Source: Nannocystis pusilla (GTDB lineage Bacteria; Myxococcota_A; Polyangia; Nannocystales; Nannocystaceae). Taken from it: a stretch of DNA of 64,000 nt. This document shows, piece by piece, positions 3,961 to 58,070 of this stretch. Below the pieces are notes generated by a model. That model did no database searches and was not told the origin of the DNA. It was given only the letters and a program-made list of their open reading frames with translations. The position numbers were made by a program, and so were the translations under genes. Within the stretch, counting starts at the first letter, position 1. Each line of letters starts with the position of its first letter. The stretch lies in the NCBI RefSeq assembly GCF_051105105.1, contig NZ_CP185339.1; one strand, written 5' to 3'.

Positions 3961-4000
3961 GAAAGGAAATCGCGGCAGTGTGACGCCGGCGATGGCCGTC
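3961..4000 (-). terminator. Rho-independent terminator candidate downstream of the plsC-like gene: 15-bp perfect stem cgcggcagtgtgacg / cgtcacactgccgcg, 10-nt loop, T-rich tail on the minus strand
   Basis: Perfect inverted repeat seen directly in the sequence, followed on the minus strand by tttcctttcgagttt. Confidence 0.45.
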
Positions 4001-4088: not shown

Positions 4089-4883
4089 TCAGGCGCCGGA
4101 GGCGATCGGCGTGGCGTCGGAGGGGATCGGCGCGGCGCGGCCGGGCACGATGCCGCGCTCGGCGAAGTCGGCGATGATCTTGTGGGCGCGCTCCATGACC
4201 TGCGCCAGCTCGGCGTCGGACAGGCCCTTCGTCTCGATCGGGGCGCCGACGTAGATCGTGATCTTGGTCGGCGTGAGCAGGTACGAGCCCTTGTGCATCA
4301 GATCGTACATGCCGTGCGTGGCCAGCGGAATGACGGGGAGGCCGGCGATGCGGGCCATCCAGAACACGCCGCGCTTGAACTCGGCGACCTTGCCGTCGAG
4401 CGTGCGGTGGGCCTCCGGGAAGGCGAGGATCGAGATGCCCTTCTTGGCCCGGTCGCGCGCGGCCTCGGCGATGGCGCGGTAGCGGTTCTTGCCGTCCGGC
4501 ACCGGGATGCCGTCGGCCAGCTTCATGATCCAGCCGTACATCGGGATCTTGAACTGCCAGGCGTTCATCAGGCCGCAGAAGGCGTGCGGGATCGAGGCGC
4601 AGGCGGCGTGCGCGTCGAGCAGGTTGACGTGATTCATCATGAACACGCCGCGCCGCTCGGGGTCGAAGTCGGGGTCGTAGATGATCTCGACCTTCGACAG
4701 GGTGATCTTGAGGACCGCGCCCATGCCGGGCCCGCCGATGTAGTTGTGGGTCTTGCGCGACGGGACGACCGTCGACACCGCGGCCCACGTGACGGCGACG
4801 GCGCCCATCCACGCGAACGAGACGGTCCACACCGCGGCCGAGTAGACGACCTGAGCTGCCTTCTTGAGGATCTTGAACACCAT
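4089..4883 (-). CDS. 1-acyl-sn-glycerol-3-phosphate acyltransferase (PlsC/AGPAT family)
   Basis: HX4D motif (NHVNLLD), an FPEG-like block and an N-terminal membrane helix. Confidence 0.75.
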   Translation of the reverse strand: MVFKILKKAAQVVYSAAVWTVSFAWMGAVAVTWAAVSTVVPSRKTHNYIGGPGMGAVLKITLSKVEIIYDPDFDPERRGVFMMNHVNLLDAHAACASIPHAFCGLMNAWQFKIPMYGWIMKLADGIPVPDGKNRYRAIAEAARDRAKKGISILAFPEAHRTLDGKVAEFKRGVFWMARIAGLPVIPLATHGMYDLMHKGSYLLTPTKITIYVGAPIETKGLSDAELAQVMERAHKIIADFAERGIVPGRAAPIPSDATPIASGA

Positions 4884-4887
4884 TACA

Positions 4888-5796
4888 TCACGTCCGGACG
4901 TCGAGCGCGCCGGGGACGACCTCCAGCCGGCGCGGGTTTATCTTGATCATCTCGCCGTCGACCATGACGTCGATGTCCTCGGCGAGGCGGAGGTCGAGGC
5001 CGGGGGCCTGGTAGCAGCGCACGGCCGGGTGCTGCACGTGCGTGCCGCTGAAGATCTTGGGGAAGGTGCGCAGCAGGCCGACCCGGCCGAGGCGACCGAC
5101 CCGGATGATGTCGAGCAGGCCGTCGCGCGTGTTGGCGTCGGGCGCCATCATCATCTTGCCGCCGGTGAAGCGGCTGTTGTTGAACGAGAGGAAGGTCAGC
5201 GGCTCGCGGTCCTCGGGGTGACCGTCGATCTGCATCGGGAAGGTGTAGGGCCGCAGCGCGGCGACCCGCAGCACGGTGCTCAGCGTGTAGCCGAACTCGC
5301 CCAGGGCCGAGAAGTTGCGGTTGCGGGTGGCGCCAACGTTGGCGACAAAGCCGATGCTGAAGATGTTGATGAAGTGCAGCGCGCCGCGGGTGTGCGTGCA
5401 ACGAACGAGGTCGCACGGCCGGGTCTTGCCGGCGATGATCGCCTCGATCGCGTACTCGGCCCCCTGATCGGTGAAGTCGCGCAGGAACGAGTTACCTGTC
5501 CCGAGGGGCAGCATGCCGAGCGACGGGCGCTCGCCCTCCGGCAGCGCCCCGGAGAAGATGCCGTTGATCAGCTCGTAGCTGGTGCCGTCGCCGCCGACGG
5601 CGATAAAGTGGCGCCGACCGGCCGCGACGGCCTCGCGCGCGAGCTCGGTGGCTTGACCTGCGGCCCGCGTCTCGACGACGTCGACCTTGATGCCCGACTG
5701 CCGCAGCCGGTCGACGACCGCGGGCGCCCGCTTGCCGCACACGCCGCCGCCGGCGGCTGGGTTGACGACTGCGAGGAGGGTGGCCGAATCGTGCAT
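4888..5796 (-). CDS. lipid kinase with diacylglycerol-kinase catalytic domain (YegS/BmrU family)
   Basis: GGDGT motif and the NPAAGGG N-terminus typical of DAGK_cat. Confidence 0.7.
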   Translation of the reverse strand: MHDSATLLAVVNPAAGGGVCGKRAPAVVDRLRQSGIKVDVVETRAAGQATELAREAVAAGRRHFIAVGGDGTSYELINGIFSGALPEGERPSLGMLPLGTGNSFLRDFTDQGAEYAIEAIIAGKTRPCDLVRCTHTRGALHFINIFSIGFVANVGATRNRNFSALGEFGYTLSTVLRVAALRPYTFPMQIDGHPEDREPLTFLSFNNSRFTGGKMMMAPDANTRDGLLDIIRVGRLGRVGLLRTFPKIFSGTHVQHPAVRCYQAPGLDLRLAEDIDVMVDGEMIKINPRRLEVVPGALDVRT

Positions 5797-5873
5797 GCGG
5801 GCATGCTATCAGGCCCCGGAGGGCCGTGGAGGGGCGGATGGCCGCGGGAACGGGGCGGCGCGGCCGCGGCGGT

Positions 5874-7589
5874 TCACAGGTCCCGCAGGGCGGCGTCGCG
5901 GCCGAGCGGCTTCAGCTCGCGGGCGAGCGGGTCGCGCTTGATCTTCTGCGAGGCGGTGCGCGGGAATTCGCGGTCCCACAGCACGTAGGCGGAGATCCGC
6001 TTGTAGTCGGCGAGCCGGAGGTTGCGCTTGCGGAAGGCGTCGATGAGGTCGGCGCGGCCGGCCTCGTCGAGGCCCGACTTGGGCCGCACGACGACGATGA
6101 GCTGCTCGTCGGTCATCTTGCCGGTCGGCCAGATGAAGTTGGCCGCGAACACGCAGAACTCCTCGCAGTCGTCGATGTCGCCGAAGGCGGCCTCGATGTC
6201 CTCGGGGTAGACGTTCTTGCCGCCCTCGGTGACGATCATGTTCTTGGTGCGGCCGAACAGCTTGAGGTGCCCGGCGGCGTCGATGCTGCCGAGGTCGCCA
6301 GTGCGCAGCCAGCCGTCGACGATCGCCTCGCGCGTCAGCTCGGGCGCGTCGAGGTAGCCGAGCATGACCGTGGGCCCGCGCACCCACACCTCGCCGACGC
6401 CGGCGTCGTTGACGTCGCGCAGCTCGATCTCGGTGCCCTCGACCGCCTTGCCGACGCTGTCGCCGCGGAACGGCTTGAGGTCGTTGACGGTGAGGACGGT
6501 GCCGGCCTCGGTGAGGCCGTAGCCGATGGCGACCGGCAGGCCGAGGCGGTTGAAGTACTCGGCGCTCGCGCGGTCGACGAAGGCGCCGCCGCAGAACATG
6601 AGCCGCAGCTTGCCGCCGAAGTACTCGTGGATCGGGGCGAGCAGGGTCTTGCTGAGCCGGTGGTCGGGCGCCTGGCGGGTCGCGTACTCGTTGAGGTCCA
6701 TCAGGCCGTCGAGCACGAGCCGCTGCCACTTGGGCAGCTCGGCGATCTTCTCTTTGATCTTCTTCTCGAGGGTCTTGAGGATCGTCGGCACCAGCGCCAT
6801 GTGGGTGACGCCGTAGCGCTTCATGGTGCTGGCCAGGTAGGCCGGCCGCAGGGTGCGCTGGTGGACCACCGCGCCCCCCATCATCAGCGCGAGCAGGAAG
6901 CCGCACATGAAGTCGATGGCGTGGTTGGTCGGGAGGATCGAGAAGTAGCGATCGCCCTCGCTCAGCGGGTAGAGGTTGCCGAGGGTCTCGGCCTGGGCGA
7001 GGTAGTTGCCGTGGCTGAGCTGGCAGCCCTTGGCGGTCCCGCCGGTGCCCGAGGAGTAGACGATGCAGGCGACGTCCTCGCGGGCGCGGGCGTGGTAGGT
7101 GAAACCTGCTCCTTGGGGCAGGTCCTCCCAGCGCACCGCGCGACCGATGCCGGCGCCCTCGGGGGCCTCGGTGACGATGACGAGGGTGCGCTCGAAGATC
7201 GAGGGGTCCTCGCGCTGCAGCTTGTCCCACGCCGGCCACTCGGCGAGGACGACGCGCGGGCGGCAGTGGGCGAGCAGGGCGTGCTGCTCGGGCGCGGTCA
7301 GCTTGTAGTCGATCGGGACCAGCACGGCGCCGGCCCACAGCGCCCCGGTGGCGCCGATCAGCCACTTCGACTGGTTCTGCATGACGATCGCGCAGCGATC
7401 GCCGGGGCCGAAGCCGTGGGCCTGGACGGCGCCGGCGAACCGCTCGGCCGCGGCCCGCAGCTCGGCGAAGGTGTGGCGCGAGTTCTCGCGGTGGCGATCG
7501 GCCTCGATCAGCGCGGTCCGGCTCTTGTACGTGATGGTGGCGTCACGCAGCGCCTCGCCGAGGCAGGACAGCTTTCCCAGGTCGAGCAT
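5874..7589 (-). CDS. AMP-dependent synthetase/ligase (long-chain acyl-CoA synthetase)
   Basis: YSSGTGGTAKG adenylation motif, 571 aa. Confidence 0.75.
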   Translation of the reverse strand: MLDLGKLSCLGEALRDATITYKSRTALIEADRHRENSRHTFAELRAAAERFAGAVQAHGFGPGDRCAIVMQNQSKWLIGATGALWAGAVLVPIDYKLTAPEQHALLAHCRPRVVLAEWPAWDKLQREDPSIFERTLVIVTEAPEGAGIGRAVRWEDLPQGAGFTYHARAREDVACIVYSSGTGGTAKGCQLSHGNYLAQAETLGNLYPLSEGDRYFSILPTNHAIDFMCGFLLALMMGGAVVHQRTLRPAYLASTMKRYGVTHMALVPTILKTLEKKIKEKIAELPKWQRLVLDGLMDLNEYATRQAPDHRLSKTLLAPIHEYFGGKLRLMFCGGAFVDRASAEYFNRLGLPVAIGYGLTEAGTVLTVNDLKPFRGDSVGKAVEGTEIELRDVNDAGVGEVWVRGPTVMLGYLDAPELTREAIVDGWLRTGDLGSIDAAGHLKLFGRTKNMIVTEGGKNVYPEDIEAAFGDIDDCEEFCVFAANFIWPTGKMTDEQLIVVVRPKSGLDEAGRADLIDAFRKRNLRLADYKRISAYVLWDREFPRTASQKIKRDPLARELKPLGRDAALRDL

Positions 7590-7823
7590 CTAGCGCCTCG
7601 CGTCGATCTTCTGCGCCAGGGCGGCGAAGGTCTTGATCCCCTGGAGCTCGTAGTCGGGCAGCTCGACGTCGAACTCGTCCTCGACGTCCGAGATGAGCTC
7701 GACGGCCTGGAAGCTGTCGATGCCGAGGCGCTCGAACAGGTCGTCCTCGGCGCGGAGCTGGGCCGGGTCGGCGCCGAAGCGCTTGGCGGCGAGACGGATG
7801 AGGGTGTCGAGGGAGGTGCTCAT
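7590..7823 (-). CDS. acyl carrier protein
   Basis: 77 aa acidic protein with a GIDSFQAVEL phosphopantetheine-attachment motif. Confidence 0.7.
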   Translation of the reverse strand: MSTSLDTLIRLAAKRFGADPAQLRAEDDLFERLGIDSFQAVELISDVEDEFDVELPDYELQGIKTFAALAQKIDARR

Positions 7824-8593
7824 GGCAGGTACGGTCTCAGGTCGGTGGACTCGACGAAGCGCTTGAGGGCGGCCAGCAGCGCCGGGCCCTCGGCGAGGCG
7901 GACGAACAGCTCGCGCTCGGCGAGCAGCTCGTCCTTCGGGAGCTTCTTGATGAAGGCCTTGGCGGCCTCGCGCGCGGTCTTGTCGAACTTGGCGGTCTGG
8001 GCCGCGAGCGCGCGCGCGGCGGTGATGCCCTCGCCGCTGGCGAGGACCTGGCTGACGAGGCCGGCCGCCAGCGCCTTCTTAGCGTTGATGCTGCGGCCGC
8101 TGAGCAGGAGGTCGCGGATGAGGCCGTTGCCGACGTCGCGGCGCAGCCGCGGGATGCCGCCGAAGCCGGGGATGATGCCGAGGCGCAGCTCGGGGAAGCA
8201 GAAGCGCGCGGTCTTCTCGGCGATCAGGACGTCGCAGGTGAGCGCGAGCTCGAAGCCGCCGCCGAAGCAGACGCCGTGGACGACGCCGACGGTGGTCAGC
8301 GGCAGCATGTCGAGGTCGTCCATGACGCCGTGGATGGCGTCGATGAACTGGCGGATCTGCGGCCCGTGCTGGTCCTTCGGCGCGTCGGACAGGCCCCGGT
8401 AGAGCTCGCGCAGGTCGGCGCCGGCGCAGAAGCCCTGGCGCAGGCCGCTGCGCAGGATCAGCGTGTGCGCGTCGCGATCGATCTGGTCGAGGAAGCGGCG
8501 CAGATCGGCGAGCATGGTCGTGCCGATCTCGTTGCACGGCGGCGTGGCGAGGGTCAGCTCGTACACGCCTTCGCTGTAGGTCCAGTCGATCAT
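7820..8593 (-). CDS. enoyl-CoA hydratase/isomerase (crotonase) family protein; true start MIDWTYSEG at 8593, the Arg-rich N-terminal extension in the track is spurious
   Basis: Crotonase fold motifs (GFCAGADL, CFGGGFELAL). The ATG at 8593 overlaps the stop of the upstream gene (ATGA). Confidence 0.7.
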   Translation of the reverse strand: MIDWTYSEGVYELTLATPPCNEIGTTMLADLRRFLDQIDRDAHTLILRSGLRQGFCAGADLRELYRGLSDAPKDQHGPQIRQFIDAIHGVMDDLDMLPLTTVGVVHGVCFGGGFELALTCDVLIAEKTARFCFPELRLGIIPGFGGIPRLRRDVGNGLIRDLLLSGRSINAKKALAAGLVSQVLASGEGITAARALAAQTAKFDKTAREAAKAFIKKLPKDELLAERELFVRLAEGPALLAALKRFVESTDLRPYLP

Positions 8594-10224
8594 GACGCGT
8601 AGGCCTTGTCGATCTCGGCGCGGTAGCGCTGCTCGACGGCGCGGCGGCGCAGCTTCTGGTTGGCGGTGAGGAGGCCGTTCTCGATCGTGAACGGCTCGGC
8701 GACGCGGATGAAGGCGCGGACCTTCTTGTAGTGCGGGACGCTGGCGTTGACGACCTCGAGCGCGGCGTCGATGGCGTCCTTGGGCACGTCGCCGGGGACG
8801 ATGATGCCGAGGAACGGCCGCGCGTGGCCGACCAGCATGCACTGCTCGGCCTTGGGGCAGGCGGCGAGGAACTTCTCCTCGATCGGCTCGGGGGCGATGT
8901 TGTGGCCCGACTCGGGGACCAGGATGTTCTTGACGCGGCCGATGATGCGGACGTTGCCGGTGGCGTCGAGGTCGCCCTGGTCGCCGGTGTGGAACCAGCC
9001 GTCCCTTATCGCCTCGGCGGTGGCCTGCTCGCGGCCCCAGTAGCCGGCGAAGATGCCCGGGCCGCGCACGAGCAGCTCACCCTCGTCGGAGATCTTGATC
9101 TCGCAGCCCTGGATGGCGTGGCCGACGTAGCCGGGGCGCACGCCGCCGGGGATGTCCATGGTGACGATCGCGGTGGTCTCGGTCAGGCCGTAGACCTGGT
9201 AGACCTGCACGCCGACCAGCTCGAACCACCACTGCGTCTCCTCGGCCAGCGCCGCCGAGCCGCAGATCAGGAACTCGAGGCTGGGACCGATCTGCTGCTT
9301 TACCTTGCTGAAGACCAGCTTCTTGGCGGCGGCCAGAGTGAGCCTGTCCAAAAGGCCAGCCTTGCCCTCGCGCTCGGCGCGAAAGGCGGCCTGGCCGCGG
9401 TTGTACAGCGCGAGGGCGAGGCCGCCGCGCTCCGCGATCTTCTTGCCGACGCCGTTCTTGATCCGCTCGAGCACCGCCGGCACGTTGAGGTAGTAGTGCG
9501 GGTCGGCGGCGCCCATCTCGGCGACGAGGTTCTGCAGGTCGGTCGACAGCAGCAGCGGGTTGCCGCGGTACAGCTGCGTCCACAGCATGACGCGCGAGCC
9601 GGCGAAGCAGAACGGCAGGAAGTGGAACACCTTGTCGGCCCGCTTGCCGCCGGTGATGCGGTCGACGCTGCCGCGGGTCTGCGGCAGCATGTAGTCGACG
9701 TTGGCGCGGGTGAGGACGACCCCCTTGGGCTCGCCGCTGGTGCCGGAGGTGTAGATGATGGTGACCGGGTCGGTCGGCGCGACCGGCCGCGGCGGCTCGT
9801 GCACGGGCTCGCCGGCGAGGACATCGCGCAGGTCCTCGATCGGGCAGTGCTCGGGCCAGGCGCCCTGCAGGCCGGCGGCGAGGTCGGGGCCGTCGGCGAT
9901 GACGAGCACCGGCGTGCAGTCCTTGACCATCACCGCGAGCTCTTTGGGATCCTGGCGGCTGTAGAGCGGGACGACGATCGCGCCCTCGAACAGGATGGCG
10001 AGGTCGGCGGCGACCCAGCGGGCCGAGTTGGGCGCGAGCAGGGCGACGCGGTCGCCCGGCTTGACGCCGCGGCCGCGCAAAAAGCCGCGCGCGTGGGCCA
10101 CGAGGTGCAGCAGCTGCGCGGCCGAGGTCGGCCGGCGCTCCTTGCCGTGCAGCTCGATGAGGAGCTGATCCTCGCGGGTCTTCTGGACCGCGCCGTGGAT
10201 GACTTCGAGGAAGTTGTCGCTCAT
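8590..10224 (-). CDS. fatty-acyl-AMP ligase / AMP-binding enzyme; true start MSDNFLEV at 10224
   Basis: TSGTSGEPKGV adenylation motif. The start codon overlaps the stop of the upstream gene. Confidence 0.75.
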   Translation of the reverse strand: MSDNFLEVIHGAVQKTREDQLLIELHGKERRPTSAAQLLHLVAHARGFLRGRGVKPGDRVALLAPNSARWVAADLAILFEGAIVVPLYSRQDPKELAVMVKDCTPVLVIADGPDLAAGLQGAWPEHCPIEDLRDVLAGEPVHEPPRPVAPTDPVTIIYTSGTSGEPKGVVLTRANVDYMLPQTRGSVDRITGGKRADKVFHFLPFCFAGSRVMLWTQLYRGNPLLLSTDLQNLVAEMGAADPHYYLNVPAVLERIKNGVGKKIAERGGLALALYNRGQAAFRAEREGKAGLLDRLTLAAAKKLVFSKVKQQIGPSLEFLICGSAALAEETQWWFELVGVQVYQVYGLTETTAIVTMDIPGGVRPGYVGHAIQGCEIKISDEGELLVRGPGIFAGYWGREQATAEAIRDGWFHTGDQGDLDATGNVRIIGRVKNILVPESGHNIAPEPIEEKFLAACPKAEQCMLVGHARPFLGIIVPGDVPKDAIDAALEVVNASVPHYKKVRAFIRVAEPFTIENGLLTANQKLRRRAVEQRYRAEIDKAYAS

Positions 10225-11703
10225 GCGTGGCGCTCCAGCAGGCGCTGCACGCCCGGCGGCAGCGGCGGCAGGTGGGCTTCCCAGGTGCGCGGGAGGTCGC
10301 GCCGCGGGAACTCGGGGTAGACGCGGACGACCTCGTCCATGAAGTCGATGCCCATCTGACCCATGAGCTTCAGCTGGGCCGGGACGGCGCGGGCGATGTC
10401 GGCGCTGATGCCCTCGGCGTCGCGCCACAGGCGGCGCAGGGTGTGCAGCAGCTTGTCGCCGAGGCCCTCCTCGTCGACCTCGAAGAACATGTCCGGGTGA
10501 CCGCGATCGTTCATGAGGTTGCGGATCCGCTCGTCCATGGTGACGCCGGCGGAGGGCACGAGGCCGGGCATCGAGGTGACGATCGCGTGGAAGCGGGAGC
10601 TCACCATCATGCTGCAGTTACGCAGCACGCTGACGAGGTCGTACATGTCGTGCTCGTCGCTGACGAACAGCGCGCCGCCGCGGTCGAGGCGCGGCTGCAG
10701 GTCCTCGCACGCGTGGCGGTCGAGCTGCTCCATGCCGACGAGGATGGTGAAGAACTCGCGCTCCGCGGCGAACGCGTTGACGCCGTCGGCCAGGGCCTGG
10801 ATGTACGCGTTGTACTTCTTGTCGGCCGCTTCGCTGTGGTGGTGGAAGTAGAAGGCGCTGTAGTGCTCGTGCTTGTACTGCCCGCCGAGCTTGTAGGCGG
10901 CGTACTTGAGCAGGTCGGGCTTGACCGGCCACCAGAACGGGTTGATCGGGCAGACGACGAGGACCTTCTGGCGGCCGTCCCAGCCGGCGTCGCGCAGCAG
11001 CTGGGCGCCGCGCGACAGCGGAGCCGGGTCGAAGGTCCAGGCGGTGTCGGCCCCGGAGGTGGTGCGGATGCCGAGCTCGCCGAGGACCTTGCGCGAGGGC
11101 TCGTTGCGGCAGATGACCAGCGACTTCTTGCAGGCGTCGCGCACGAAGTCGCGGAGCGCCGGGGTCATGTTGCCGGCCTCGGCGCCGTAGCCGACGCTGA
11201 CCTTGTTCTCGGCGTTGGCGAGGCCGAGCGCGCCGGCCATGAAGCAGGTCAGCGCGCTCGAAGAACTTCGACTTGAACATCGAGCCCTCGCAGGCGATGA
11301 CGCCGTGGTGCTTCGGGCACTCGGTGGCGATGAACTTGGGGAACACCGCCGGCAGCTCGATCTGGTGGACGGCGCGGAAGTAGCCGCGCGTCAACTTGGG
11401 ATCGACGGTCATGATCGTCAGCTCGAGCTGGTCGTCGCCGACGACGTGGCGCAGCTGGCGGATCATCTCCTCGACGCGGACGTCGGCGCCGGTGTTGCGC
11501 GTGCCGACGTAGCCGGCCAGCAGCAGCTTGAGCGGCTTGCCCGGCTTCCACGTCTCGGGCGCCATGCCGAGGACGTTGCGGACGGCGACGCCCTCGATGG
11601 CGGCGGCGACGGTGGCCTGGAGGGCGCGGTCGGGGTCGACAACGTCCTTGACCTTGTCCCAGATCTTGCTGGTGGTCTTCTTGACGGGTGCGCTCTTGGA
11701 CAT
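10221..11703 (-). pseudogene. polysaccharide pyruvyl-transferase family protein (CsaB-like), frameshifted near 11240
   Basis: N-terminal GYVGTRNTGAD motif in one frame (11703 down to about 11245) and an SSRFHAIV C-terminal motif in the other (11240 down to 10221). Join is FFERADLL / MAGALGLANAE. Confidence 0.45.
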
Positions 11704-11713
11704 GTTCGAAGGG

Positions 11714-12859
<1,146 letters not shown>

Positions 12860-12863
12860 GGTG

Positions 12864-14550
12864 TCAGACGACCTCGGCGTGGGGCGCGGGCGCGGCCTCG
12901 GGCGAGCGCAAGCGGAAGGGGTGGCGCGGGGCGTAGCTCTCGGGGGTCTTGTTCTCGAACAGCGGGAAGCACCACTTGCGAAGGCCGGGGATGTGGACGT
13001 CGATCCAGTAGTGGCGCCAGTCGATGCTGCGCGGGTCGCAGTCCCACTCGGGCTCGACGACGGGGTGCCGCAGCAGGTTGCGGGTGACGAACGCGAAGTA
13101 GTTGTCGTGGATGAACGGCAGGTAGAGCTCGCACATGCGCTCGATCTTGTCGATCGCCTCGAGCGCCTCCTCGGTGTGCTCGACGAGGTCGCCGAGCCGG
13201 CGGCGGATGAACTCCGGCCAGCCCTTCGGCGGGTCGCGCAGCCACTCGTCGACCGACTCGGTCATCTTGCGCACGTTCTCGATCCGCATCGGGTGGTCGG
13301 GCGTGACGGCGATCGCGTCCCAGCGCGACTTGACGACCCGGTCGAGGGTGGTGTCGCCGCGGGTGCGCAGGTGCTTGCGGTGGGCCAGCGCGACCAGCTC
13401 GACGGCGCGGTCGATGGTGAGGAGGTTGAGGTCCGAGCTGCCGCACTGGTAGACCGGCGCGTGCTCGCCCCGCATCAGCGCGGCGCCGGCGACGGTCATG
13501 CCGCGGCAGACGTAGTCGACCGGGATGATGTCGAACGGGTTGCCCCGCTTGCACGGCAGGTGGCGGAACCAGCTGCCGAGCGCGTAGCTCAGCGGGCCGC
13601 AGGTGTTGAAGCCCTGGTTCCACCCGGGGAACGGGTAGCTCATGGCGCTCTCGACGATCGCGGGGCGGAACATGCTCCACCGGCCGGGATCGAGGCGGCG
13701 GGCGATCCACGCCTCGGCCATGTTCTTGGTGTACGTGTAGATGTTGGTGAAGCCCCAGCGGCCGGCGCGGCGCTGGCCCTCGGCGACCATCGCGTCCTTC
13801 AAGAGGTTGCGCTTGATCCGGCGGGCGGTGTTGCGCACCAGCATCGCGTTGCTCTCGTCGCCGCCCTTGTCGCGGATCTGCTTGACCGCGTCGTCGTGGG
13901 CGCGCTTGTCCATCTCCGGCGACTCGTGCTCGGCGAGGATGGCGTCGATGCTGGCCTGGACCTCGGCGCACTCGACCTCAACGTCGAACGGGTCGCCGGC
14001 GGGCGAGAGGTCGGGGCGGATGTCCTCGGGGATGAGGCCGTTCTTCTTGCCGGTGACGTAGCAGGTCGAGATGTGCAGCAGCACCGCCTTGTCGCAGGCG
14101 GCGACGAAGTTGGCGGCGTTGCGGGCGCCCTCGACGTTGGTCGTCATGGCGTCGCGCAGGTCGGGGTCGAAGTCGACGAGGCCGGCGCAGTTGATCACGA
14201 GGTCGATGTCGCGGCGCAGGCGGGCCAGCACCGCCGGGTCCTCGACGCCCATGTCGGGCAGCGAGAACGTCGCCGGAGACGACCTCGATCCGCTCGCTGA
14301 TGAAGCGGCTCATGTCGGCGCCGTACTTCTCGTGCAGCGGGCGGAAGCACGGCGAGGTCTGGACCTGGCGCTCGAACCGGTCGGCGGCGGGGCGCAGCGC
14401 CTTCTTGCGCGTGAGCACGTAGATCTTGCCGACGTCCGGCACGTACTGCAGGACCATCGCCAGCCAGACCTTGCCGAGGAAGCCGGTGACCCCGGTGAGC
14501 AGGACGTGGCGGCCGGCGTAGCTGTGCTTGATCGAGATCGGCGTGTTCAC
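12864..14550 (-). pseudogene. second fatty acyl reductase (NAD_binding_4), frameshifted near 14265 by an extra A at a GACGTC site (read as GAACGTC)
   Basis: N-terminus LLTGVTGFLGK (14550 to about 14270) continues in another frame as MGVEDPAVLARLRRDIDLVINCAG. Removing one A from gagaacgtcgcc restores VSGDVSLPDMGVED. Confidence 0.65.
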
Positions 14551-14578
14551 GGGTGTCCTCCGGTTCCTGTCCCCAAGG

Positions 14579-15256
14579 TCAGTCGCGGTAGTCGATGATC
14601 GGCCAGTCGGCGTCCTTGGCGCTGCGGCGCAGGACGAAGTCGGGGTTGACGGCGCACGGCTTGCCGACGCGCGACAGCAGCAGCATGTCCGGACCGTGGG
14701 CGCCGTAGGCGGCGCAGCGCGCGAGCTGGAGGTCGTGCGCGGCGGCGTAGTCGTCGAGCCAGCGGCCGCCGACGTTCGAGCCGATGACCGGGTCGAGCAG
14801 CTTGCCGGTGGCCTCGCCGTCCTCGAACTCGATCTTGTTGTAGACGAGCTCGTCGTAGTGCTTGAGGTGACGCGCGAGCGGCTTCATGATCGGCTCGATG
14901 CTGTCCGACAGCAGCACGACCCGCCGCCCCTCGGCCTGCAGCCGCTTGAGCAGCTCGAGGCCCTGATCGAGGATCGTGTCCTTCAGGACATCCTCGGCGT
15001 ACTCCTCGCAGAGGACCTCGACGCGGTCCTGGCTCATGCCGCGGATGGCGAGGTGGGCGAGGCGGTGGGCCAGCGCGCGGTCGGTCTGCCCGAGCAGGCG
15101 GTGGACCGGGGCGGCGAGACCGACGAGGCCGAGGCGGACGGCCCGCTCACCGAACTTCTTGGCGTTGCCGGCCAGATAGGCCGCCGCGCTGAGCACGCCG
15201 CGGGCGAGCAGGATGCCTTCGACGCGGACGAATGCTGCCGTGTTGGTTTGTGTCAT
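14579..15256 (-). CDS. HAD-IB family hydrolase (phosphoserine-phosphatase-like)
   Basis: HAD motifs; probable start MTQTNTAAFVRVEG. Confidence 0.6.
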   Translation of the reverse strand: MTQTNTAAFVRVEGILLARGVLSAAAYLAGNAKKFGERAVRLGLVGLAAPVHRLLGQTDRALAHRLAHLAIRGMSQDRVEVLCEEYAEDVLKDTILDQGLELLKRLQAEGRRVVLLSDSIEPIMKPLARHLKHYDELVYNKIEFEDGEATGKLLDPVIGSNVGGRWLDDYAAAHDLQLARCAAYGAHGPDMLLLSRVGKPCAVNPDFVLRRSAKDADWPIIDYRD

Positions 15257-15465: not shown

Positions 15466-15571
15466 CTAGTTGGCGCGGACGATTGCTCGTGTGTTTAGAA
15501 ATTCCTCCGGCGTGAGACCGGTCGGGGTGTCACCGGTGGGACGCGCGGCGAGGTGCGCTATCGTTGCGGCC

Positions 15572-16202
15572 ATGACCGCGCCGCTGCTCGTCTGCGCCGC
15601 CGAGGTCGAGGGCCGCGGGCTACCCTCGGCGCTGCGCCTCGGCGTCGGCAAGGTGGCGTCGGCGGTGAGCATGACGCAGGCGCTGATCGAGCGCCGGCCG
15701 GCGTGGGTGCTGCTGTTCGGGGTCTGCGGCGCCTATCCCGAAGGACATGGCCCGGGAGGCAGGCTCGAACGTCGGCGACGTGTGCCTGGTCGGCGAGGAC
15801 TGGCTGGGCGACGAGGGGGTCGCGGTCGACGACGGCTTTTTGCCGCTGGCCCAGCTGGGTCTCGGGTCGGTCGGGCCGTTTCAGGCCGACCCGGCGCGCA
15901 CGGCCGCGGCGGCGCGGGTGCTCGCGGCCCCGGTGGTGCGCGGGGCGACGGTCAGCACCTGCAGCGGGACGGACGCGCGCTCGCGTGCGCTGGCCAGCGG
16001 TACGGGGGCCACGGTCGAGACGATGGAGGGGGCGGCGGTGGCGTGGGCCTGCCGCGCGCTCGGGGTGCCGTGGGTGCAGCTGCGCTGCGTGAGCAATCGA
16101 ACCGGCCGACGCGCCGCGGGCGGGTGGGACCTGCCGCGCGCGGTGGCCGGAGTGCAGGCGGCGCTGCTGCGACTGCAGGCCGCGGACTGGGGGAGCGAAT
16201 GA
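15572..16202 (+). pseudogene. mqnB: futalosine hydrolase MqnB (PNP/MTA-nucleosidase family), frameshifted near 15768 (GAACGTC)
   Basis: LLVCAAEVEG...LLFGVCGAYP in one frame, DVCLVGED...TMEGAAVAWAC in the other. Removing A from ctcgaacgtcgg gives GRLDVGDVCLV. Confidence 0.6.
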
Positions 16203-17017
16203 GCGAGCCGCTGCCGATCGGGTTCTCGCCGTGTCCGAACGACACGTGGATGTTCGACGCGCTGGTGCGCGTGCCGGAGTTCGTGCCGGGGCTGCGGCCG
16301 CTGCCGTGGCTGGCCGACATCGAGGCGCTCAACGAGCGCGCGCTGGCCGGCGAGGCGCCGCTGCCGGTGACGAAGCTGAGCGCGCACGGGCTGTTCTGGG
16401 TCGAGCGCGACTACCTGGTCTTGCGGACAGGCGCGGCGCTGGGCCGCGGCTGCGGGCCCTTGGTGGTCGCGCGCGAGGCGACGGCGCTCGGGGCCCTGGC
16501 CGGGCGGAAGATCGCCATCCCGGGCGCGTACACGACGGCGCATTTGCTGCTCCGCTGCTTCGCGCCGGCGTCGGTGACGGTGGTGCCGATGCGCTTCGAT
16601 CGCATCATGCCGGCGGTGGCGGCCGGCGAGGTCGACGCGGGGCTGGTGATCCACGAGGCGCGGTTCGTGTTCCGCGACCACGGGCTGCAGCAGGTGGCGG
16701 ACCTCGGCCAGGTGTGGGAGGCGGCCACGGGGCTGCCGCTGCCGCTCGGGGTGATCGCGGCCCACCGCTCGCTGCCCGCGGGGCAGGTGCGGGCGGTCGA
16801 GGAGGGGATCGCCCGCTCGATCGCGGCGGCGGAGGCCGACCCGGCGGCGGCGTGGCCGTTCGTGAAGGCGCACTCGCAGGAGCTGAGCGACGAGGTGTGC
16901 CGGCAGCACATCGCGCTGTACGTCAACGAGTTCTCGCGCGACATGGGGGCGGAGGGGGCGGCGGCGCTGGCCGAGCTGCGCGCGCGCGGGCAGGCGGCGG
17001 GGCTGTTGCCGCGCTGA
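16199..17017 (+). CDS. mqnD: 1,4-dihydroxy-6-naphthoate synthase MqnD
   Basis: N-terminal GFSPCPNDTWMF motif. The ATG overlaps the mqnB stop (ATGA). Confidence 0.7.
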   Translation: MSEPLPIGFSPCPNDTWMFDALVRVPEFVPGLRPLPWLADIEALNERALAGEAPLPVTKLSAHGLFWVERDYLVLRTGAALGRGCGPLVVAREATALGALAGRKIAIPGAYTTAHLLLRCFAPASVTVVPMRFDRIMPAVAAGEVDAGLVIHEARFVFRDHGLQQVADLGQVWEAATGLPLPLGVIAAHRSLPAGQVRAVEEGIARSIAAAEADPAAAWPFVKAHSQELSDEVCRQHIALYVNEFSRDMGAEGAAALAELRARGQAAGLLPR

Positions 17018-17100
17018 GGACATGTCCGCGGTAGCATGCTTCTGGGGACATGCTCGCCAGGACATGTCCGAGAGAGCAGGATCTTGAGCGCCTGTCCGTG
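17008..17100. repeat. cluster of GGACATGTCC-family palindromes (two GGACATGTCCG, GGGGACATGCTCG, CCTGTCCGTGAAGACAG) in the convergent intergenic region
   Basis: Seen directly in the sequence. Confidence 0.4.
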
Positions 17101-17116
17101 AAGACAGCCGGCGGCG

Positions 17117-17891
17117 TCAGCCGGCGGGCAGGGCCTCGAAGAACAGGCGGCCGTCTCGCTCGTGGGCGACGACGCCGAAGGCCGCGCCGAGGTGCTGCGG
17201 GCTGAACACGTCGGGGCAGGCGCCGACGCGGGCGCGGCCGGCGGCGAGCAGGATCGCGTCGTCGGCGTGGCGGCGGGCGAGGTCGAGGTCGTGCTCGGCG
17301 ACCAGGACCGCCACGCCCTCGCGCGCGAGGGCCCGCAGGTGGCGGTAGAGGCCGAGGGCGTGGCCGATGTCGAGGCCGGCGGCCGGCTCGTCGAGGATGA
17401 CGACGGCGGCCTCGGCGGCGAGCATGCGCGCGAGCATGACGCGCTGGCGCTCGCCGCCGCTGAGCCGGCCGATCGGGCGTTCGGCGAAGGCGGCCAGGCC
17501 GAGGCGCGCGAGGGCGGCTTCGGCGGCGTCGGCGTCGGCGGCGCGCGGCGGACCGAAGCGCGGGAGGTTGGGCAGCCGGCCGAGGAGGACGACCTCCCGC
17601 ACGTGGAGGTCGGGCTCGACGGGGCAGTGCTGCGGCAAATAGGCCAGCCGGCGGGCGCGCGCGGCGGGCGAGAGGGCGGCGAGGCGGTCGCCGAGCAGCT
17701 CGATGTGGCCGGCCTGCGGACGGTCGAGCCCGGCGAGGGTGCGCAGGAGGGTCGACTTGCCGGCGCCGTTGGGGCCGGCGACGACGCAGAATCCGGCCGC
17801 GCCGGAGGTCGAGGTCGAGGGCCTCGTAGAGGACCCGCTCGGCGAGCCGACAGGTCAGGCCGCGAGCGGCGAGGGCGGGCGCCTCGGTCAT
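17117..17891 (-). pseudogene. ABC transporter ATP-binding protein, frameshifted near 17792 (GAATC where GATC restores the frame)
   Basis: MTEAPALAARGL...RRGRI in one frame; Walker A GPNGAGKSTLL, LSGGERQRV signature and Walker B ILDEP in the other. Removing one A gives RICVVAGPNGAGKST. Confidence 0.6.
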
Positions 17892-17997
17892 GCCCGGCAT
17901 TAATAGGAGAGAGGCGGGGGGGCGCCGCAAGCCCGCGGGCAAGAGGTGGCGCACGCGCAGGAACGGGCGCGCCGGCGCCGGATCGACTAGTGTTCGC

Positions 17998-19945
17998 CGC
18001 ATGTCGCTCGTCCAGCTCAGGGCCAGCAAGACGGCGCCGCCGCGGGACCTGCGGGCGTTCCTGCCGATGACCCGCGAGGAAATGGACGCGCGCGGGTGGG
18101 ATGAGCTCGACGTGCTCATCATCAACGGCGACGCCTACGTCGACCACCCGGCGTTCGGCGGGGCGCTGATCGGCCGGTTCCTCGAGGGCCGCGGGCTGCG
18201 GGTCGGGATGATCGCGCAGCCGCGCTGGGATGACCCAAAGGACATCTCGCGGCTGGGCCGGCCGCGGCTGTTCGTCGGCATCACCGCCGGCAACCTCGAC
18301 TCGATGCTCAACAAGCTGACGGCGCAGAAGAAGATCCGCGGCGAGGATCAATACTCGCCCGACGGCGCGCTCGAGCAGCGGCCGAACCGCGCCAGCATCG
18401 TCTACTCGAACCTGGCCCGGCAGGCGTTCCCGGGGCTGCCGGTGGTGCTCGGCGGCATCGAGGCGAGCCTGCGGCGGATCGCCCACTACGACTACTGGAG
18501 CGACCAGGTGCGCCGCAGCGTGCTGGTCGACAGCAAGGCCGACCTGCTGATCTTCGGCATGGGCGAGCGGCCGGTGTGGGAGGTCGCGCGGCGGCTCAAG
18601 GCCGGCGAAGACATCAGCACGATCCGCGACGTCCGCGGCACGGCGGTGATGCTGCCCAAGGGCCAGTGGGAGCACCTGCCGAAGAGCCGCTACGTGCGCG
18701 ACGGGCTGCCGCTGCACCTGCCCAGCTTCGAGGAGGTGAGCGCCGACAAGGACGCGTTCCTCGAGATGTCGCGGGCGTTCCAGCACGAGACGAACCCGGG
18801 CAACGGGCGGCCGCTGGTCCAGCCGCACGGCGACCGGGCGCTCTACTGCAACCCGCCGGCGCACCCGCTCGACATGCGCGACATGGACGCGCTGTACGAC
18901 CTGCCGTTCGTGCGCCGGCCGCACTGGACTTACGCGGGCAGCAAGATCCCGGCGTTCGAGACGGTCAAGCACTCGATCGTGACGATGCGCGGGTGCTTCG
19001 GCGGCTGCACGTTCTGCTCGATCACCGAGCACGAGGGCCGCATCATCCAGTCGCGCTCGGCCGAGAGCGTGCTGCGGGAGATCCGGGCGCTGCGCCGCAT
19101 GGACGACTTCCGCGGCGTGATCTCGGAACGTCGGCGGCCCGACGGCCAACATGTACCGCATGCGCTGCAAGAGCGAGCAGATCGAGAGCGCGTGCCGCAA
19201 GCTGTCGTGCGTCCACCCGGGCGTGTGCGAGAACCTCGACACCGATCACGGGCCGCTCGTCGACCTGCTGAAGAAGGTGCGCAAGTCCGAGGGCGTGCGG
19301 CGCGTGTTCATCGCCTCGGGCGTCCGTTACGACCTGGCAGAACGATCTCCGGCGTTCATCCGCGAGCTCGCTACGCACCACACCGGCGGACAATTGTCCG
19401 TGGCGCCCGAGCACGTGAAAGACGACGTGCTCGCCAAGATGAAGAAGCCCGGGGTCGCCAGCTACGAGCGCTTCGCCGAGCAGTTCACGTGCGCGAGCGA
19501 GGCCGCGGGCAAAGATCAGCATCTGGTGCCCTACTTCATTTCCGGGCATCCGGGCAGCACGCTCGATGACATGGTCGATCTCGCGCTATGGCTGAAGGCG
19601 CGAGGCGTGCGACCCAGGCAGGTGCAGGACTTCATCCCCACGCCGATGAGCATGGCGACCTGCATGTACTACACGGGTCGCGATCCGTTCACGCGCCAGC
19701 CGGTCTACACGGCGAAAGAGCTGCGCGAGAAGAAGCTGCAGAAGTCGCTCCTCCTTTATTGGGATCCGGCGCAGCACCACCTCGCTCGCGAGGCGCTGCG
19801 TCGAGCCGGGCGCGCTGCGCTGATCGGTCACGGGCCTTCGTGTCTGGTGCCGCCGGAGGGAGGAGGAGCGACGCGCACACATGGAGCGTCGCCTGTCCCG
19901 GGCGCCAGGCGGGCACGGCGCGGGCTCGGGGCCGCCGGGCCATGA
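17998..19945 (+). pseudogene. YgiQ-family radical SAM protein (UPF0313), frameshifted near 19127 (GAACGTC)
   Basis: N-terminal MTREEMDARGWDELDV, radical SAM CFGGCTFCSI. After the shift the frame gives GGPTANMYRMRCKSEQ. Confidence 0.7.
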
Positions 19946-27107: not shown

Positions 27108-28658
27108 TCAGGCGCGGATCTTGAGGGTCTTGATCTTGCGCAGGAGGGTGGCGCGGCCGATGCCCATGGCCCGGGCGGCGCCGCTGCGGTTGCCGTCGTG
27201 GGCGGCCAGCACGGCCTCGATGTAGAGCTTCTCCATCTCGTTCCACGACAGGCGGGCGAGGTCTGCCCCGCCACGCCCGGCCTTGCGGCCCGCGGCCGGG
27301 AGCTCGCGCGGATCGGCGGGCAGAGGCAGGTCGGCGACCTCGATGGCGTCGCCGACGCTGAGGACGACCGCGCCCTCGATGCAGTTCTCGAGCTCGCGGA
27401 TGTTGCCGGGCCAGCTGTGCGCGTGCAGCCGCGCGAGCGCGGGCGGGGAGAAGCGCACGACCTGCTTGTTGTGGCGCTGGGCGAAGCCGGCCAGGAAGTG
27501 ATAGGCGAGCTGCTCGAGGTCCTCGGGCCCGCGCTCGCGCAGCGGCGGCATGGCCAGCGAGAGCACGCGCAGGCGGTAGTAGAGGTCCTCGCGGAAGCGC
27601 TGGCGGGCGACCATGTCCTCGAGGTTGCGGTTGGTGGCGGCGAGGATCCGGACGTCGACCTTGAGGGTCTTGCGCCCGCCGACCCGCTCGAACTCGCGGT
27701 CCTGCAGGACGCGCAGCAGCTTGCTCTGGAGCGTGAGCGGGACCTCGCCCAGCTCGTCGAGGAAGACGGTGCCGCCGTCGGCGGCCTCGAACTTGCCGAC
27801 GCTGCGCTGGTCGGCGCCGGTGTACGCGCCGCGCTCGTGGCCGAAGAGCTCGTTTTCGATCAAGGTGGCCGGCAGCGAGGCGCAGTCGACGGCGACGAAC
27901 GGCCGCCCGGCGCGCGGGCTGTTGTAGTGGATCGCCCGCGCGATCAGACCCTTGCCGGTGCCGGTCTCGCCGGTGATGAGGACGGTCGCGTCGGTGCCCG
28001 CCGCCCGTGTCACGAGATCGTAGACGCGTCTCATCCGCGCGCCGCCGCCGACCACGCCGTTGAAGCGGTAGCGCAGCGGTCCGCCGGTGGGGGCCCGCAG
28101 CTGGCCGTAAAGACTGGTGCTCTCGACCAGCATGGCGACCTGGCTGGCGAGCGCGCGCAGCAGGGCCTCGTCGTCGTCGTCGAAGGCGGCGCCCTTCTTG
28201 TTGAGGAGCTGGAGGACGCCGAGGATCTCGCCGGCGCGATCGAGGACCGGGACGCACAGCATCGAGCGCGTGGCGTAGTTGGTGGCGCGATCGATGGCGC
28301 CGTAAAACCGCGGGTCGCCCTCGGTGTGCGAGAGGTTGATGGCCTCGCCGGTGCGCGCGACGTGGCCGGCGATGCCCTGGCCGACCTTGAGACGGATCTC
28401 GCGCAGCTCCGGCAGGTGCGCGGCCTTGCTGAACAGCTCGCCCCGGGCCCGATCGACCAGGTAGAAGGTGCCGCGGTCGGCGTCCATGGCCCGGGTGACG
28501 GTGTCGATGACCTGCGCCAGCAAGGCGTCGAGGTCGACCTCGCGGCGCACGAGCTCGCCGAGCGCGAACAGCACGCTGTCGCGATCGACCCGCGTGCGCC
28601 GCGGCGGCGTCTCCCCGGTGCTCGGCTTCGCCGGTCTCTTGCGCGCTGCTGGCTCCAT
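27108..28658 (-). CDS. sigma-54-dependent transcriptional activator (GAF sensor + AAA+ sigma-54 interaction domain + Fis-type HTH)
   Basis: GAF domain, Walker A GETGTGKG, the GAFTGA-like block ERGAYTGA, ESELFGHE-like motif and a C-terminal HTH. Confidence 0.8.
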   Translation of the reverse strand: MEPAARKRPAKPSTGETPPRRTRVDRDSVLFALGELVRREVDLDALLAQVIDTVTRAMDADRGTFYLVDRARGELFSKAAHLPELREIRLKVGQGIAGHVARTGEAINLSHTEGDPRFYGAIDRATNYATRSMLCVPVLDRAGEILGVLQLLNKKGAAFDDDDEALLRALASQVAMLVESTSLYGQLRAPTGGPLRYRFNGVVGGGARMRRVYDLVTRAAGTDATVLITGETGTGKGLIARAIHYNSPRAGRPFVAVDCASLPATLIENELFGHERGAYTGADQRSVGKFEAADGGTVFLDELGEVPLTLQSKLLRVLQDREFERVGGRKTLKVDVRILAATNRNLEDMVARQRFREDLYYRLRVLSLAMPPLRERGPEDLEQLAYHFLAGFAQRHNKQVVRFSPPALARLHAHSWPGNIRELENCIEGAVVLSVGDAIEVADLPLPADPRELPAAGRKAGRGGADLARLSWNEMEKLYIEAVLAAHDGNRSGAARAMGIGRATLLRKIKTLKIRA

Positions 28659-28815
28659 CCGGCCAGTGTATCAGAATGAGACGGTGGCTCAAACCGAGGC
28701 GTGCGTTCCCGCGCTGCAGTGAAGACAGCGCTGGAGCCGCGCGCGCGGGCGACGGAGCGGCTGGGCGCGGATGCAGGCGTTGACGCCCGCGCGAGCCGTT
28801 CGCGATAAAATCGCC

Positions 28816-33048: not shown

Positions 33049-33179
33049 GCCACAAGCCGTCGACCGCGTCGTCCTGCGCCTCTACGCGCGCGCCATTGCG
33101 GCGACTGCCGCCGGGTTTTGCCGAAGACGCGCAACACCGGGGGAAGGTGTGTTAACGTCACAGGGTCCCCCGAGAAGCC

Positions 33180-35254: not shown

Positions 35255-35311
35255 TCTCTAGCTCTCGGTTCGTGCGGGTCGCGCGTGACGACCCCGCCCT
35301 GAAGGCCCCCC

Positions 35312-39864: not shown

Positions 39865-40018
39865 GATTCCTCGCTTTGAGCCGCGGCGCGCAGGCGCCGT
39901 CGCACTGTGGTACTTCCTCGAACCGAGGGCGTCCAGGCCACAGGCACGGGCTCGCGCCGAAGTCCGGGGGATCGCGCCCCCAGCGGGCGTCATCGTCGCT
40001 TCTGCGCTGTTCGTGAGG

Positions 40019-54743: not shown

Positions 54744-54750
54744 GGCCGGG

Positions 54751-56719: not shown

Positions 56720-56734
56720 GCCGGGCCCCCGACG

Positions 56735-56860
56735 AGGCGCGGTGCCAGGGCTGAACTTCGGGACATGGTCCGGAGGACCTGCCCGAAAGTGCGGTCGAGC
56801 AAACGCCTCCGGGGAGGTGTCGAAGAGGACATGTCCCGATGGCCCTGTCGGAAAGTGCGG
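56735..56860. repeat. GGACATGTCC-family palindromes and a duplicated CCTGYCSGAAAGTGCGG unit in the KAS/CLF intergenic region
   Basis: Seen directly in the sequence. Confidence 0.35.
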
Positions 56861-56864
56861 GCGA

Positions 56865-58046: not shown

Positions 58047-58070
58047 GAGGGCGAGGGCGGGCGCGGCCGA

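Follow-up and report, generated by a model that had tools for sequence, protein, structure and literature searches.

A conserved ten-gene operon of Nannocystis pusilla as a candidate for the synthesis of fatty-alcohol-derived, possibly ether-linked, glycerolipids

We analysed a 64,000-nucleotide stretch of DNA (the window) from Nannocystis pusilla (RefSeq assembly GCF_051105105.1, contig NZ_CP185339.1; G+C about 70%), in which positions 4089–15256 of the minus strand carry ten co-directional genes for lipid enzymes. In transcription order, these genes encode a HAD-like protein (14579..15256, 225 aa), a fatty acyl reductase (FAR, 12864..14550, 561 aa after frame correction), a protein of the thioester-reductase type (TR, 11714..12859, 381 aa), an enzyme resembling the PS_pyruv_trans family (PT, 10221..11703, 493 aa after frame correction), an acyl-CoA synthetase (ACS, 8590..10224, 544 aa), a crotonase (ECH, 7820..8593, 257 aa), an acyl carrier protein (ACP, 7590..7823, 77 aa), a second adenylating enzyme (AMP, 5874..7589, 571 aa), a lipid kinase (DAGK, 4888..5796, 302 aa) and an acyltransferase (AGPAT, 4089..4883, 264 aa). 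All ten genes were supported by codon-position G+C, with values at third codon positions (GC3) of 0.85–0.98, and the HAD start at 15256 matched the called orthologues in two related loci (L001 and L002). Three junctions are 4-nt ATGA overlaps (10224/10221 for PT/ACS, 8593/8590 for ACS/ECH and 7823/7820 for ECH/ACP), and the remaining ones measure 0, 4, 4, 10, 28 and 77 nt, the ACP stop codon abutting the AMP start and the 77-nt gap preceding the kinase. The ten genes thus form one translationally coupled operon. This layout agrees with an earlier interpretation made from the letters alone (the sequence-only reading), which had reported ten tightly packed minus-strand genes with these three start-stop overlaps. 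Domains were assigned by Pfam and NCBIfam scans, and solved relatives by sequence searches of the Protein Data Bank (PDB). Every domain named in that reading was recovered by Pfam (PF01553, PF00781 with PF19279, PF00501 twice, PF00550, PF00378, PF04230, PF07993 twice and PF12710), and all ten of its genes are present, although FAR and PT are not intact open reading frames (ORFs) in the window.

The Pfam matches of the uncorrected PT and FAR ORFs begin at profile positions 92 and 80, respectively, and the missing N-termini sit directly upstream in another frame. The N-terminal 147 codons of PT belong to the ORF 10618..11703 and join the downstream frame at an extra base at 11262, where GSMFKSKF passes into SSALTCFMAG. 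The FAR N-terminus, which includes the Rossmann motif GVTGFLG, runs from a GTG at 14550 and joins at an extra base at about 14265..14267, between IEVVSGDV and SLPDMGV. Removal of one base from each gene yielded proteins of 493 and 561 aa. The restored PT was 99% identical over its full length to a database protein (P0001), and the metagenome contig bearing that protein (L001) carries intact genes of 561 and 493 aa. In addition, the window was aligned at the DNA level to this contig, to N. pusilla Na p29 (L005) and to Nannocystis sp. RBIL2 (L024), with 96.4–98.0% identity across the aligned blocks, and the insertions at 11262 and 14267 proved specific to the window. A third window-specific insertion lies 5 kb away, at 19128, and divides an unrelated radical-SAM gene of the YgiQ type (Radical_SAM_N, Radical_SAM and DUF3362 domains), which appears on the plus strand as two overlapping frames, 17830-19569 and 19121-19945.

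With two of the ten genes frame-broken, the operon might be read as a decaying or inactive pseudogene remnant of this strain in which both frameshifts are true mutations. However, the two single-base insertions are absent from three relatives that are about 97% identical, and the unrelated radical-SAM gene is broken in the same way. The occurrence of three frame-breaking insertions within about 8 kb (11262, about 14266 and 19128) suggests an unpolished long-read assembly, and L005, itself a long-read assembly, has indels of its own at other places, in TR and ECH. Moreover, GC3 is 0.93–0.98 on either side of each break. The breaks are most likely assembly or sequencing errors because the relatives lack them and an unrelated gene shares the defect, and we regard decay as very unlikely. 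Therefore, the operon is probably functional in the organism.

Both reductases predicted by the sequence-only reading were confirmed as NAD_binding_4 (PF07993) proteins. Reconstructed FAR matched PF07993 over the whole domain (165.7 bits) and resembled the fatty acyl-CoA reductase of PDB entry 7eoz (E = 4e-33), with conserved GxxGxxG (GVTGFLG) and YxxxK (YTYTK) motifs. The FAR_C or 'Sterile' domain (PF03015) was weak in the window protein (20 bits vs. a cut-off of 35.4), whereas it was clear in two orthologues (L085 and L086). By these motifs and relatives, FAR is a homologue of alcohol-forming fatty acyl-CoA reductases. TR scored 149.9 bits against PF07993 and 135 bits against TIGR01746, under the cut-off of 213; its best PDB relatives were MxaA, a polyketide synthase terminal reductase, Nrp and the R domain of carboxylic acid reductase (CAR), and its YxxxK motif is conserved. 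TR is thus predicted to be a stand-alone, carrier-protein-dependent terminal thioester reductase, which would release carrier-bound acyl groups as aldehydes or alcohols.

The HAD-like protein, previously described as a HAD phosphatase, has the HAD-IB fold (PF12710, 69.6 bits vs. a cut-off of 27; TIGR01490, 69.5 bits, under its cut-off of 98.3) but not the residues of a phosphatase. Motif I, as placed by spacing to the Pfam match rather than by direct alignment, reads R-x-E-G in place of D-x-D, the R being present in 61 and the E in 60 of 62 orthologues. Motif IV (YGAHGPD) aligned with Y-S-D-S-x-N-D of PDB entry 3fvv, and its first Asp is lost, also in comparison with SerB. Furthermore, an in-frame fusion of HAD and FAR was found in 35 of 64 loci, which comprise every Acidobacteriota-type locus and no other (L035 and L039-L083; L085 5656-8073; L086 5972-8314), with the HAD part N-terminal and invariably R-x-E-G at motif I, and a total length of about 790 aa; this is the only fusion that recurs across 86 loci. 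Because the fusion recurs in 35 loci, we tie the HAD-like protein to the reductase step. It has the HAD fold but probably not canonical phosphatase chemistry, and we regard it rather as an accessory domain of the reductase that has been remodelled.

PT is the most conserved protein besides TR, with 51–75% identity across phyla. It scored above the gathering threshold of PF04230 and therefore belongs to this family at the Pfam level, and its sequence matched PF04230 and the CsaB model alone. The scores were well under the equivalog cut-offs for CsaB (TIGR03609, 54 vs. 213 bits) and WcaK (NF007452, 18 vs. 399 bits). The motifs GYVGTRNTGAD, CEGSMF and SSRFHA resemble motifs of the PF04230 family. 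The AlphaFold model adopted a GT-B fold (predicted local distance difference test score 82, predicted template modelling score 0.81) that was as close to PimA, monogalactosyldiacylglycerol (MGDG) synthase and HepE, which are lipid-acting GT-B glycosyltransferases, as to Pvg1p. PT thus shares the Pfam match and the GT-B fold with the polysaccharide pyruvyl transferases CsaB, WcaK and Pvg1p; unlike these enzymes of roughly 300–430 aa, it has 493 aa, and its neighbours are lipid enzymes with no polysaccharide context. Phosphoenolpyruvate (PEP) is its putative donor.

The two adenylating enzymes differ in type. ACS (PF00501 and PF23562) is FadD11/ACSL-like, with FadD11 as its best NCBIfam match (200 bits) and a conserved P-loop (YTSGTSGEPKG), and is probably an accessory, long-chain acyl-CoA-synthetase-like gene product. 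AMP (PF00501, 237 bits), with its P-loop and A10 Lys conserved, had been labelled a fatty-acyl-AMP ligase (FAAL). This label is not supported by similarity, since the nearest relatives were ordinary CoA ligases for small or medium acids: PRK06187, FadD3, MenE, malonyl-, oxalate-, feruloyl- and succinylbenzoate-CoA ligases and FadD13 were found by NCBIfam and PDB searches, and no FAAL (FadD32, FadD28 and similar) was among the top 25 NCBIfam families or the 39 PDB hits at E ≤ 1e-20, all of which are CoA ligases, luciferases or aryl-acid ligases. AMP probably loads the adjacent ACP (PF00550, 52 bits), which conserves the D-S attachment motif. ECH (PF00378, 128.7 bits) has AUH, EchA8, PaaF and 3-hydroxypropionyl-CoA dehydratase as its best PDB relatives, and the oxyanion hole (CAGADL) and both catalytic Glu motifs (GGGFELAL and FPELRLG) are conserved in 60 orthologues, aligning with AUH and EchA8. 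ECH is thus a predicted crotonase-fold enoyl-thioester hydratase.

The last two genes encode a kinase and an acyltransferase. DAGK (PF00781 and PF19279) scored 152.5 bits against TIGR00147, above the cut-off of 118.65, and conserves GGDG(T) and PLGTGN; it qualifies as a lipid kinase of the YegS/Rv2252/BmrU family, as judged from these matches. AGPAT (PF01553, 56.2 bits; hydrophobic N-terminus) fell under all NCBIfam equivalog cut-offs and conserves the HX4D motif (NHVNLLD) and an FPEAHRT block in 30 orthologues, which points to an accessory acyltransferase of the PlsC/AGPAT family. In mammals, the salvage of free alkylglycerol into ether phospholipids proceeds through an alkylglycerol kinase and then an acyltransferase of the 1-acylglycerol-3-phosphate type. 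The operon would follow the same two-step logic on a free lipid alcohol (kinase, then 1-alkylglycerophosphate acyltransferase), with a kinase that belongs, in contrast to the mammalian one, to the bacterial YegS/BmrU family. The sequence-only reading had taken the kinase and phosphatase as additions that modify a head group. The kinase and acyltransferase look instead like core finishing steps, and the HAD-like protein lacks the catalytic Asp.

The distribution of the operon was assessed by a species-level scan (one genome per species) with a PT alignment and by tblastn of the ten window proteins against the best 80 loci and four more. PT relatives were found in at least 586 species genomes, and PT orthologues number more than 7,000 among database proteins. 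The genes were colinear in all 49 loci with enough DNA on both sides, and the arrangement is therefore not due to chance; a lack of conserved gene order, which the sequence-only reading had named as a refuting outcome, is strongly contradicted. The eight-gene core HAD-FAR-TR-PT-ECH-ACP-AMP-DAGK was complete in 37 of these 49 loci and all ten genes were present in 16, with median identities to the window proteins from 36% (AGPAT) to 58% (TR). The flanking genes vary from genome to genome while the order holds, and thus the block itself is the conserved unit, under selection. Judged by record titles, the carriers are Polyangiia-type Myxococcota (Nannocystaceae, Paraliomyxa, Sandaracinaceae and Polyangiales), Bradymonadia, two Bdellovibrionota metagenome-assembled genomes (MAGs) and some 39 MAGs of Acidobacteriota (Terriglobia, Blastocatellia and 'Acidiferrales'), of which many came from soil, peat and fen. 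The named hits of the PT protein searches were MAGs of Polyangiia-type Myxococcota, Acidobacteriota and one Planctomycetes, and N. pusilla, Nannocystis sp. RBIL2 and Paraliomyxa miuraensis are available as cultured carriers.

Within the conserved order, some positions vary. In 8 loci ACS is missing and ECH comes immediately after PT. AGPAT was present in 22 of the 49 well-covered loci and is missing or replaced in many Terriglobia; in one complete Terriglobia chromosome (L073), a PF00756 'putative esterase' (16862-17719) follows the kinase at the AGPAT position. Blastocatellia-type loci add a DUF4199 membrane protein between HAD-FAR and TR, a FabH (ketoacyl synthase III) between ECH and ACP (L050 15278-16279, L085 14182-15183 and L086 14258-15298) and a small ORF, and L085 ends in a methyltransferase and a SnoaL-like protein in place of the kinase and AGPAT. 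In some Nannocystales MAGs, the block is split into HAD-FAR-TR-PT and ACS-ECH-ACP-AMP-DAGK-AGPAT by 5–7 kb insertions of unrelated genes (solute-binding protein, kinase, SIR2 and AAA), which give no functional hint. In one deltaproteobacterial MAG, PT and ACS form a single ORF of 1060 aa (L020 9986-13168), either a true fusion or an indel at the ATGA overlap. This case and an ECH-ACP fusion in L005 were set aside as single cases in error-prone assemblies, and an apparent FAR-TR-PT fusion in L043 was an artefact of long spurious high-GC ORFs.

The closest known system in domain content is the elb cluster of Myxococcus xanthus (MIBiG BGC0000871). In this cluster, elbA and elbE encode proteins of the NAD-dependent epimerase family, elbB a HAD-like protein, elbC a protein whose function is not known and elbD a multidomain enzyme with FAR-like, ACS, ACP and AGPAT domains (PMC9131029). 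The sequence-only reading had recognised the ElbD domain set in the operon, and its claim stands: the FAR-like reductase, adenylating enzyme, ACP and AGPAT are all present, together with counterparts of ElbB (HAD-like) and of ElbE/ElbA (a second NAD-reductase; PF07993/PF01370), by domain content. Both systems occur in Myxococcota and Acidobacteriota, and genes for a DAG kinase and an acyltransferase are reported to adjoin elb-like clusters (bioRxiv 10.64898/2026.06.23.733905). In contrast to ElbD, which is one polypeptide (Q1DC43 / ABF88003.1), the corresponding functions of the operon fall to distinct genes, both in the window and in each of the 86 loci. Moreover, PT, crotonase and lipid kinase are core members of the operon, AGPAT is dispensable, and the HAD-like protein lacks the catalytic Asp. 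Two genome-mining studies place the elb cluster (VEPE/AEPE/TG-1) in Myxococcia and report its absence from Nannocystis, Polyangium and Sorangium (PMC12766979 and PMC10435759), with Enhygromyxa and Sandaracinus listed as well in one of them. The operon occurs in Polyangiia, the class reported to lack the canonical elb cluster, and no member of the class Myxococcia was among the named hits of the top 360 PT relatives from three PT-seeded searches (Nannocystis, Blastocatellales and Polyangiales), which hints at complementary distributions of the two systems.

Two further systems share parts of this gene set. The eukaryote-type FAR/GNPAT/AGPS pathway (M. xanthus MXAN_1676-1674; FARAT fusions) also combines an alcohol-forming FAR bearing FAR_C with an acyltransferase of the PlsC superfamily, whereas the operon has neither the AGPS flavoenzyme nor a FAR-acyltransferase fusion, FAR being fused to the HAD-like domain instead. 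The adenylation-thiolation-reduction triad of CAR and of the A-T-R release modules of nonribosomal peptide and polyketide synthases (CAR, MxaA and Nrp) is matched by AMP, ACP and TR; in the operon, however, this triad is split over three genes, with a crotonase beside the ACP and a kinase and AGPAT giving a glycerolipid context. No NCBIfam equivalog was found for any of the ten proteins, our literature searches found no paper linking a pyruvyl-transferase-family gene, a crotonase and such reductases to ether or other lipids, and nothing useful was found on Nannocystis alkylglycerols. The operon therefore appears uncharacterised. We place it among the bacterial fatty-alcohol/ether-lipid clusters, and it would be categorically new only if the PEP-dependent route described below holds.

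To judge from gene content, the operon is biosynthetic and does not serve beta-oxidation, because it contains no acyl-CoA dehydrogenase, 3-hydroxyacyl-CoA dehydrogenase or thiolase; the possibility that its domains are ordinary beta-oxidation enzymes is thus set aside. We favour, with a confidence slightly short of even, the reading that the product of the operon is a glycerolipid derived from a fatty alcohol, most likely of the O-alkyl (ether) kind, and that the operon works like elb as a separate and widely distributed gene set. This reading follows from the presence of two activation-reduction lines, a PEP-family GT-B transferase and a final pair of kinase and acyltransferase. In the proposed scheme, acyl-CoA would come from ACS, or from a housekeeping FadD in loci that lack ACS, and FAR with its HAD-like partner would reduce it to a fatty alcohol. 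In the second line (AMP-ACP-ECH-TR), a carboxylic acid would be activated on ACP, an enoyl intermediate hydrated and the product released reductively as a free alcohol, and PT would join the two lines.

A specific chemical route can be drawn within this scheme. The fatty alcohol made by FAR would receive the enolpyruvyl moiety of PEP through PT, by an addition-elimination like that of MurA and EPSP synthase. AMP would then load the resulting 2-alkoxyacrylate on ACP, the crotonase would hydrate 2-alkoxyacryloyl-ACP to 2-O-alkylglyceroyl-ACP, and TR would release 2-O-alkylglycerol. Finally, the kinase would phosphorylate the free lipid alcohol, and AGPAT or a housekeeping PlsC would acylate it, yielding an ether counterpart of phosphatidic acid. 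Formation of the ether bond would thus coincide with that of the glycerol backbone. We prefer this PEP route among specific schemes because every core gene receives a role and the dispensable ACS and AGPAT have housekeeping substitutes; it is, however, purely conjectural, and we consider it rather unlikely to be correct in this exact form.

Several observations weigh against an ether-lipid product or against this route to it. The match of PT to PF04230 is partial, covering the central profile positions 87–267, and sequence and profile searches of the PDB found no solved pyruvyltransferase for PT. No known ether-forming enzyme (AGPS or PlsA/Ger) is encoded in the operon, and PT is merely the proposed enzyme for the ether step. 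The FabH between ECH and ACP in Blastocatellia-type loci suggests ordinary fatty-acyl-ACP chemistry and not a C3 unit. Every acidobacterial carrier that was recovered is a MAG. Moreover, the operon is common in Terriglobia MAGs, and to our knowledge most cultured Terriglobia contain few or no ether lipids. Finally, the PEP route would yield 2-O-alkylglycerol, whereas the ether lipids reported for myxobacteria and Acidobacteria are of the 1-O-alkyl type, as described in part in PMC9131029.

The operon might alternatively be the ElbD pathway itself, with ElbD split by gene fission, its genes orthologous to elbB-elbE and its products the same 1-O-alkyl lipids made by ElbD chemistry, so that PT, ECH, ACS and DAGK would be add-ons. 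The sequence-only reading had proposed such a split. The ElbD domain set with its ElbB-like and ElbE-like companions fits this explanation, split elbD variants (Re separate from A-ACP-AT) have been reported in Poribacteria and soil Acidobacteria, ElbC could be a distant relative of PT, and the operon is found in the very Polyangiia lineages reported to lack canonical elb. However, no ElbD-like fusion and no partly fused intermediate (A-ACP, ACP-AT or FAR-A) was found in the 86 loci. The 150 nearest relatives of AGPAT, taken as representatives of 50%-identity clusters in a HMMER search of 1.84 billion cluster representatives, were all short (103–470 aa), none of ElbD length. PT, ECH and DAGK are core and invariant whereas AGPAT can be lost, the reverse of the pattern expected from a split ElbD with add-ons. 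In addition, a survey based on antiSMASH and MIBiG recognises no elb cluster in Nannocystis, and the adenylating enzyme is nearest to small-acid CoA ligases. We therefore do not favour the description of the operon as ElbD split into separate genes, an origin that seems rather improbable.

A second alternative, unlikely but the more credible of the two, is that the product is no glycerol ether but a lipid built on a fatty alcohol or a long-chain 1,3-diol and bearing either a sugar or a pyruvate ketal. A 2-enoyl- or 3-hydroxyacyl-ACP would be converted by AMP-ACP-ECH-TR to a 1,3-diol that mimics the O4/O6 pair of a hexose, PT would add a pyruvate ketal or act as a glycosyltransferase, and the hydroxyl still free would be a substrate of the kinase and acyltransferase. 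Known members of PF04230 form cyclic ketals with diols, the fold of PT is as near to the lipid-acting GT-B enzymes as to Pvg1p, the crotonase and TR resemble a true hydratase and a reductive-release enzyme by relatives and motifs, and FabH adjoins ACP in Blastocatellia-type loci. In such a scheme, however, FAR, the lipid kinase and AGPAT have no clear role, no enzyme of the operon would supply the 2-enoyl substrate, and we know of no such lipid from these phyla, literature searches having likewise returned none. The remaining explanation, that ordinary genes of fatty-acid degradation or phospholipid salvage are adjacent by chance, draws on the housekeeping counterparts that exist for the acyl-CoA synthetases, crotonase, DAG-kinase-like enzyme and PlsC. 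It is strongly disfavoured and scarcely credible: two reductases, an ACP and PT stand where the dehydrogenases and thiolase of a degradative set are missing, the same gene order is kept in three phyla with differing flanks, and no protein reaches an NCBIfam equivalog cut-off for a housekeeping enzyme. The ether-glycerolipid reading thus remains the one that we prefer.

Alkyl ether lipid formation in aerobic bacteria, including the chemistry of ElbD and the Acidobacteria implicated in the production of branched glycerol dialkyl glycerol tetraethers (the brGDGTs), is an open question. Ether-lipid-making Acidobacteria lack Ger, which the other screened producers have (PMC13159169). Acidobacteriota are suspected of making brGDGT ether lipids, and no ether-forming enzyme has been established in this group. 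The operon offers a sharply defined and experimentally tractable candidate, with an eight-gene core common to Polyangiia and many Acidobacteriota MAGs of soil, peat and fen. If ether lipids are made, the operon bears on the source organisms of the brGDGT palaeoclimate proxies and on why canonical elb appears to be missing in Polyangiia. The PEP route, if true, would be an oxygen-independent route to ether lipids, independent of AGPS and of PlsA/Ger, in Polyangiia, Bdellovibrionota and many soil and peat Acidobacteriota. Whatever the product, three features make the operon worth biochemical study, namely the conservation of the block in 586 or more species, the presence of a pyruvyl-transferase-family enzyme among lipid genes only, and the fusion of a fatty acyl reductase to a HAD domain whose catalytic site has been remodelled.

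The genes that flank the operon are unrelated to lipid synthesis. An Rfam scan of the window gave no match, and a promoter scan found no sigma-70-like site, as expected at such G+C content, and was uninformative. A weak terminator-like hairpin lies on the minus strand at 3973..3988, about 100 nt downstream of AGPAT; shuffled sequence would be expected to give at least as many terminator-like sites as this region, which leaves this hairpin only suggestive. Genes for an ADYC-domain protein and a beta-helix protein follow downstream, and upstream are a divergent menaquinone gene of the futalosine type and an ABC ATPase. The C-terminal half of the divergent gene (15470-17017, plus strand) matches VitK2_biosynth (MqnA/MqnD-type, futalosine pathway), and its N-terminus gives a weak PNP_UDP_1 match; this gene may be a fusion or a frame artefact (local G+C 0.76). 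Elsewhere in the window, a GAF-domain sigma-54 activator (27108-28670, minus), two Ser/Thr protein kinases (33156-35261 and 40753-42747, plus), one of them with a PEGA domain, and a large acyl-CoA dehydrogenase with an Acyl-CoA_dh_C extension (38056-40104, minus) are typical myxobacterial content with no evident link to the operon. Finally, a Trp_halogenase-like FAD enzyme, a ketosynthase of the KAS I/II type and a serine hydroxymethyltransferase lie close together at 53544-59363 on the minus strand.

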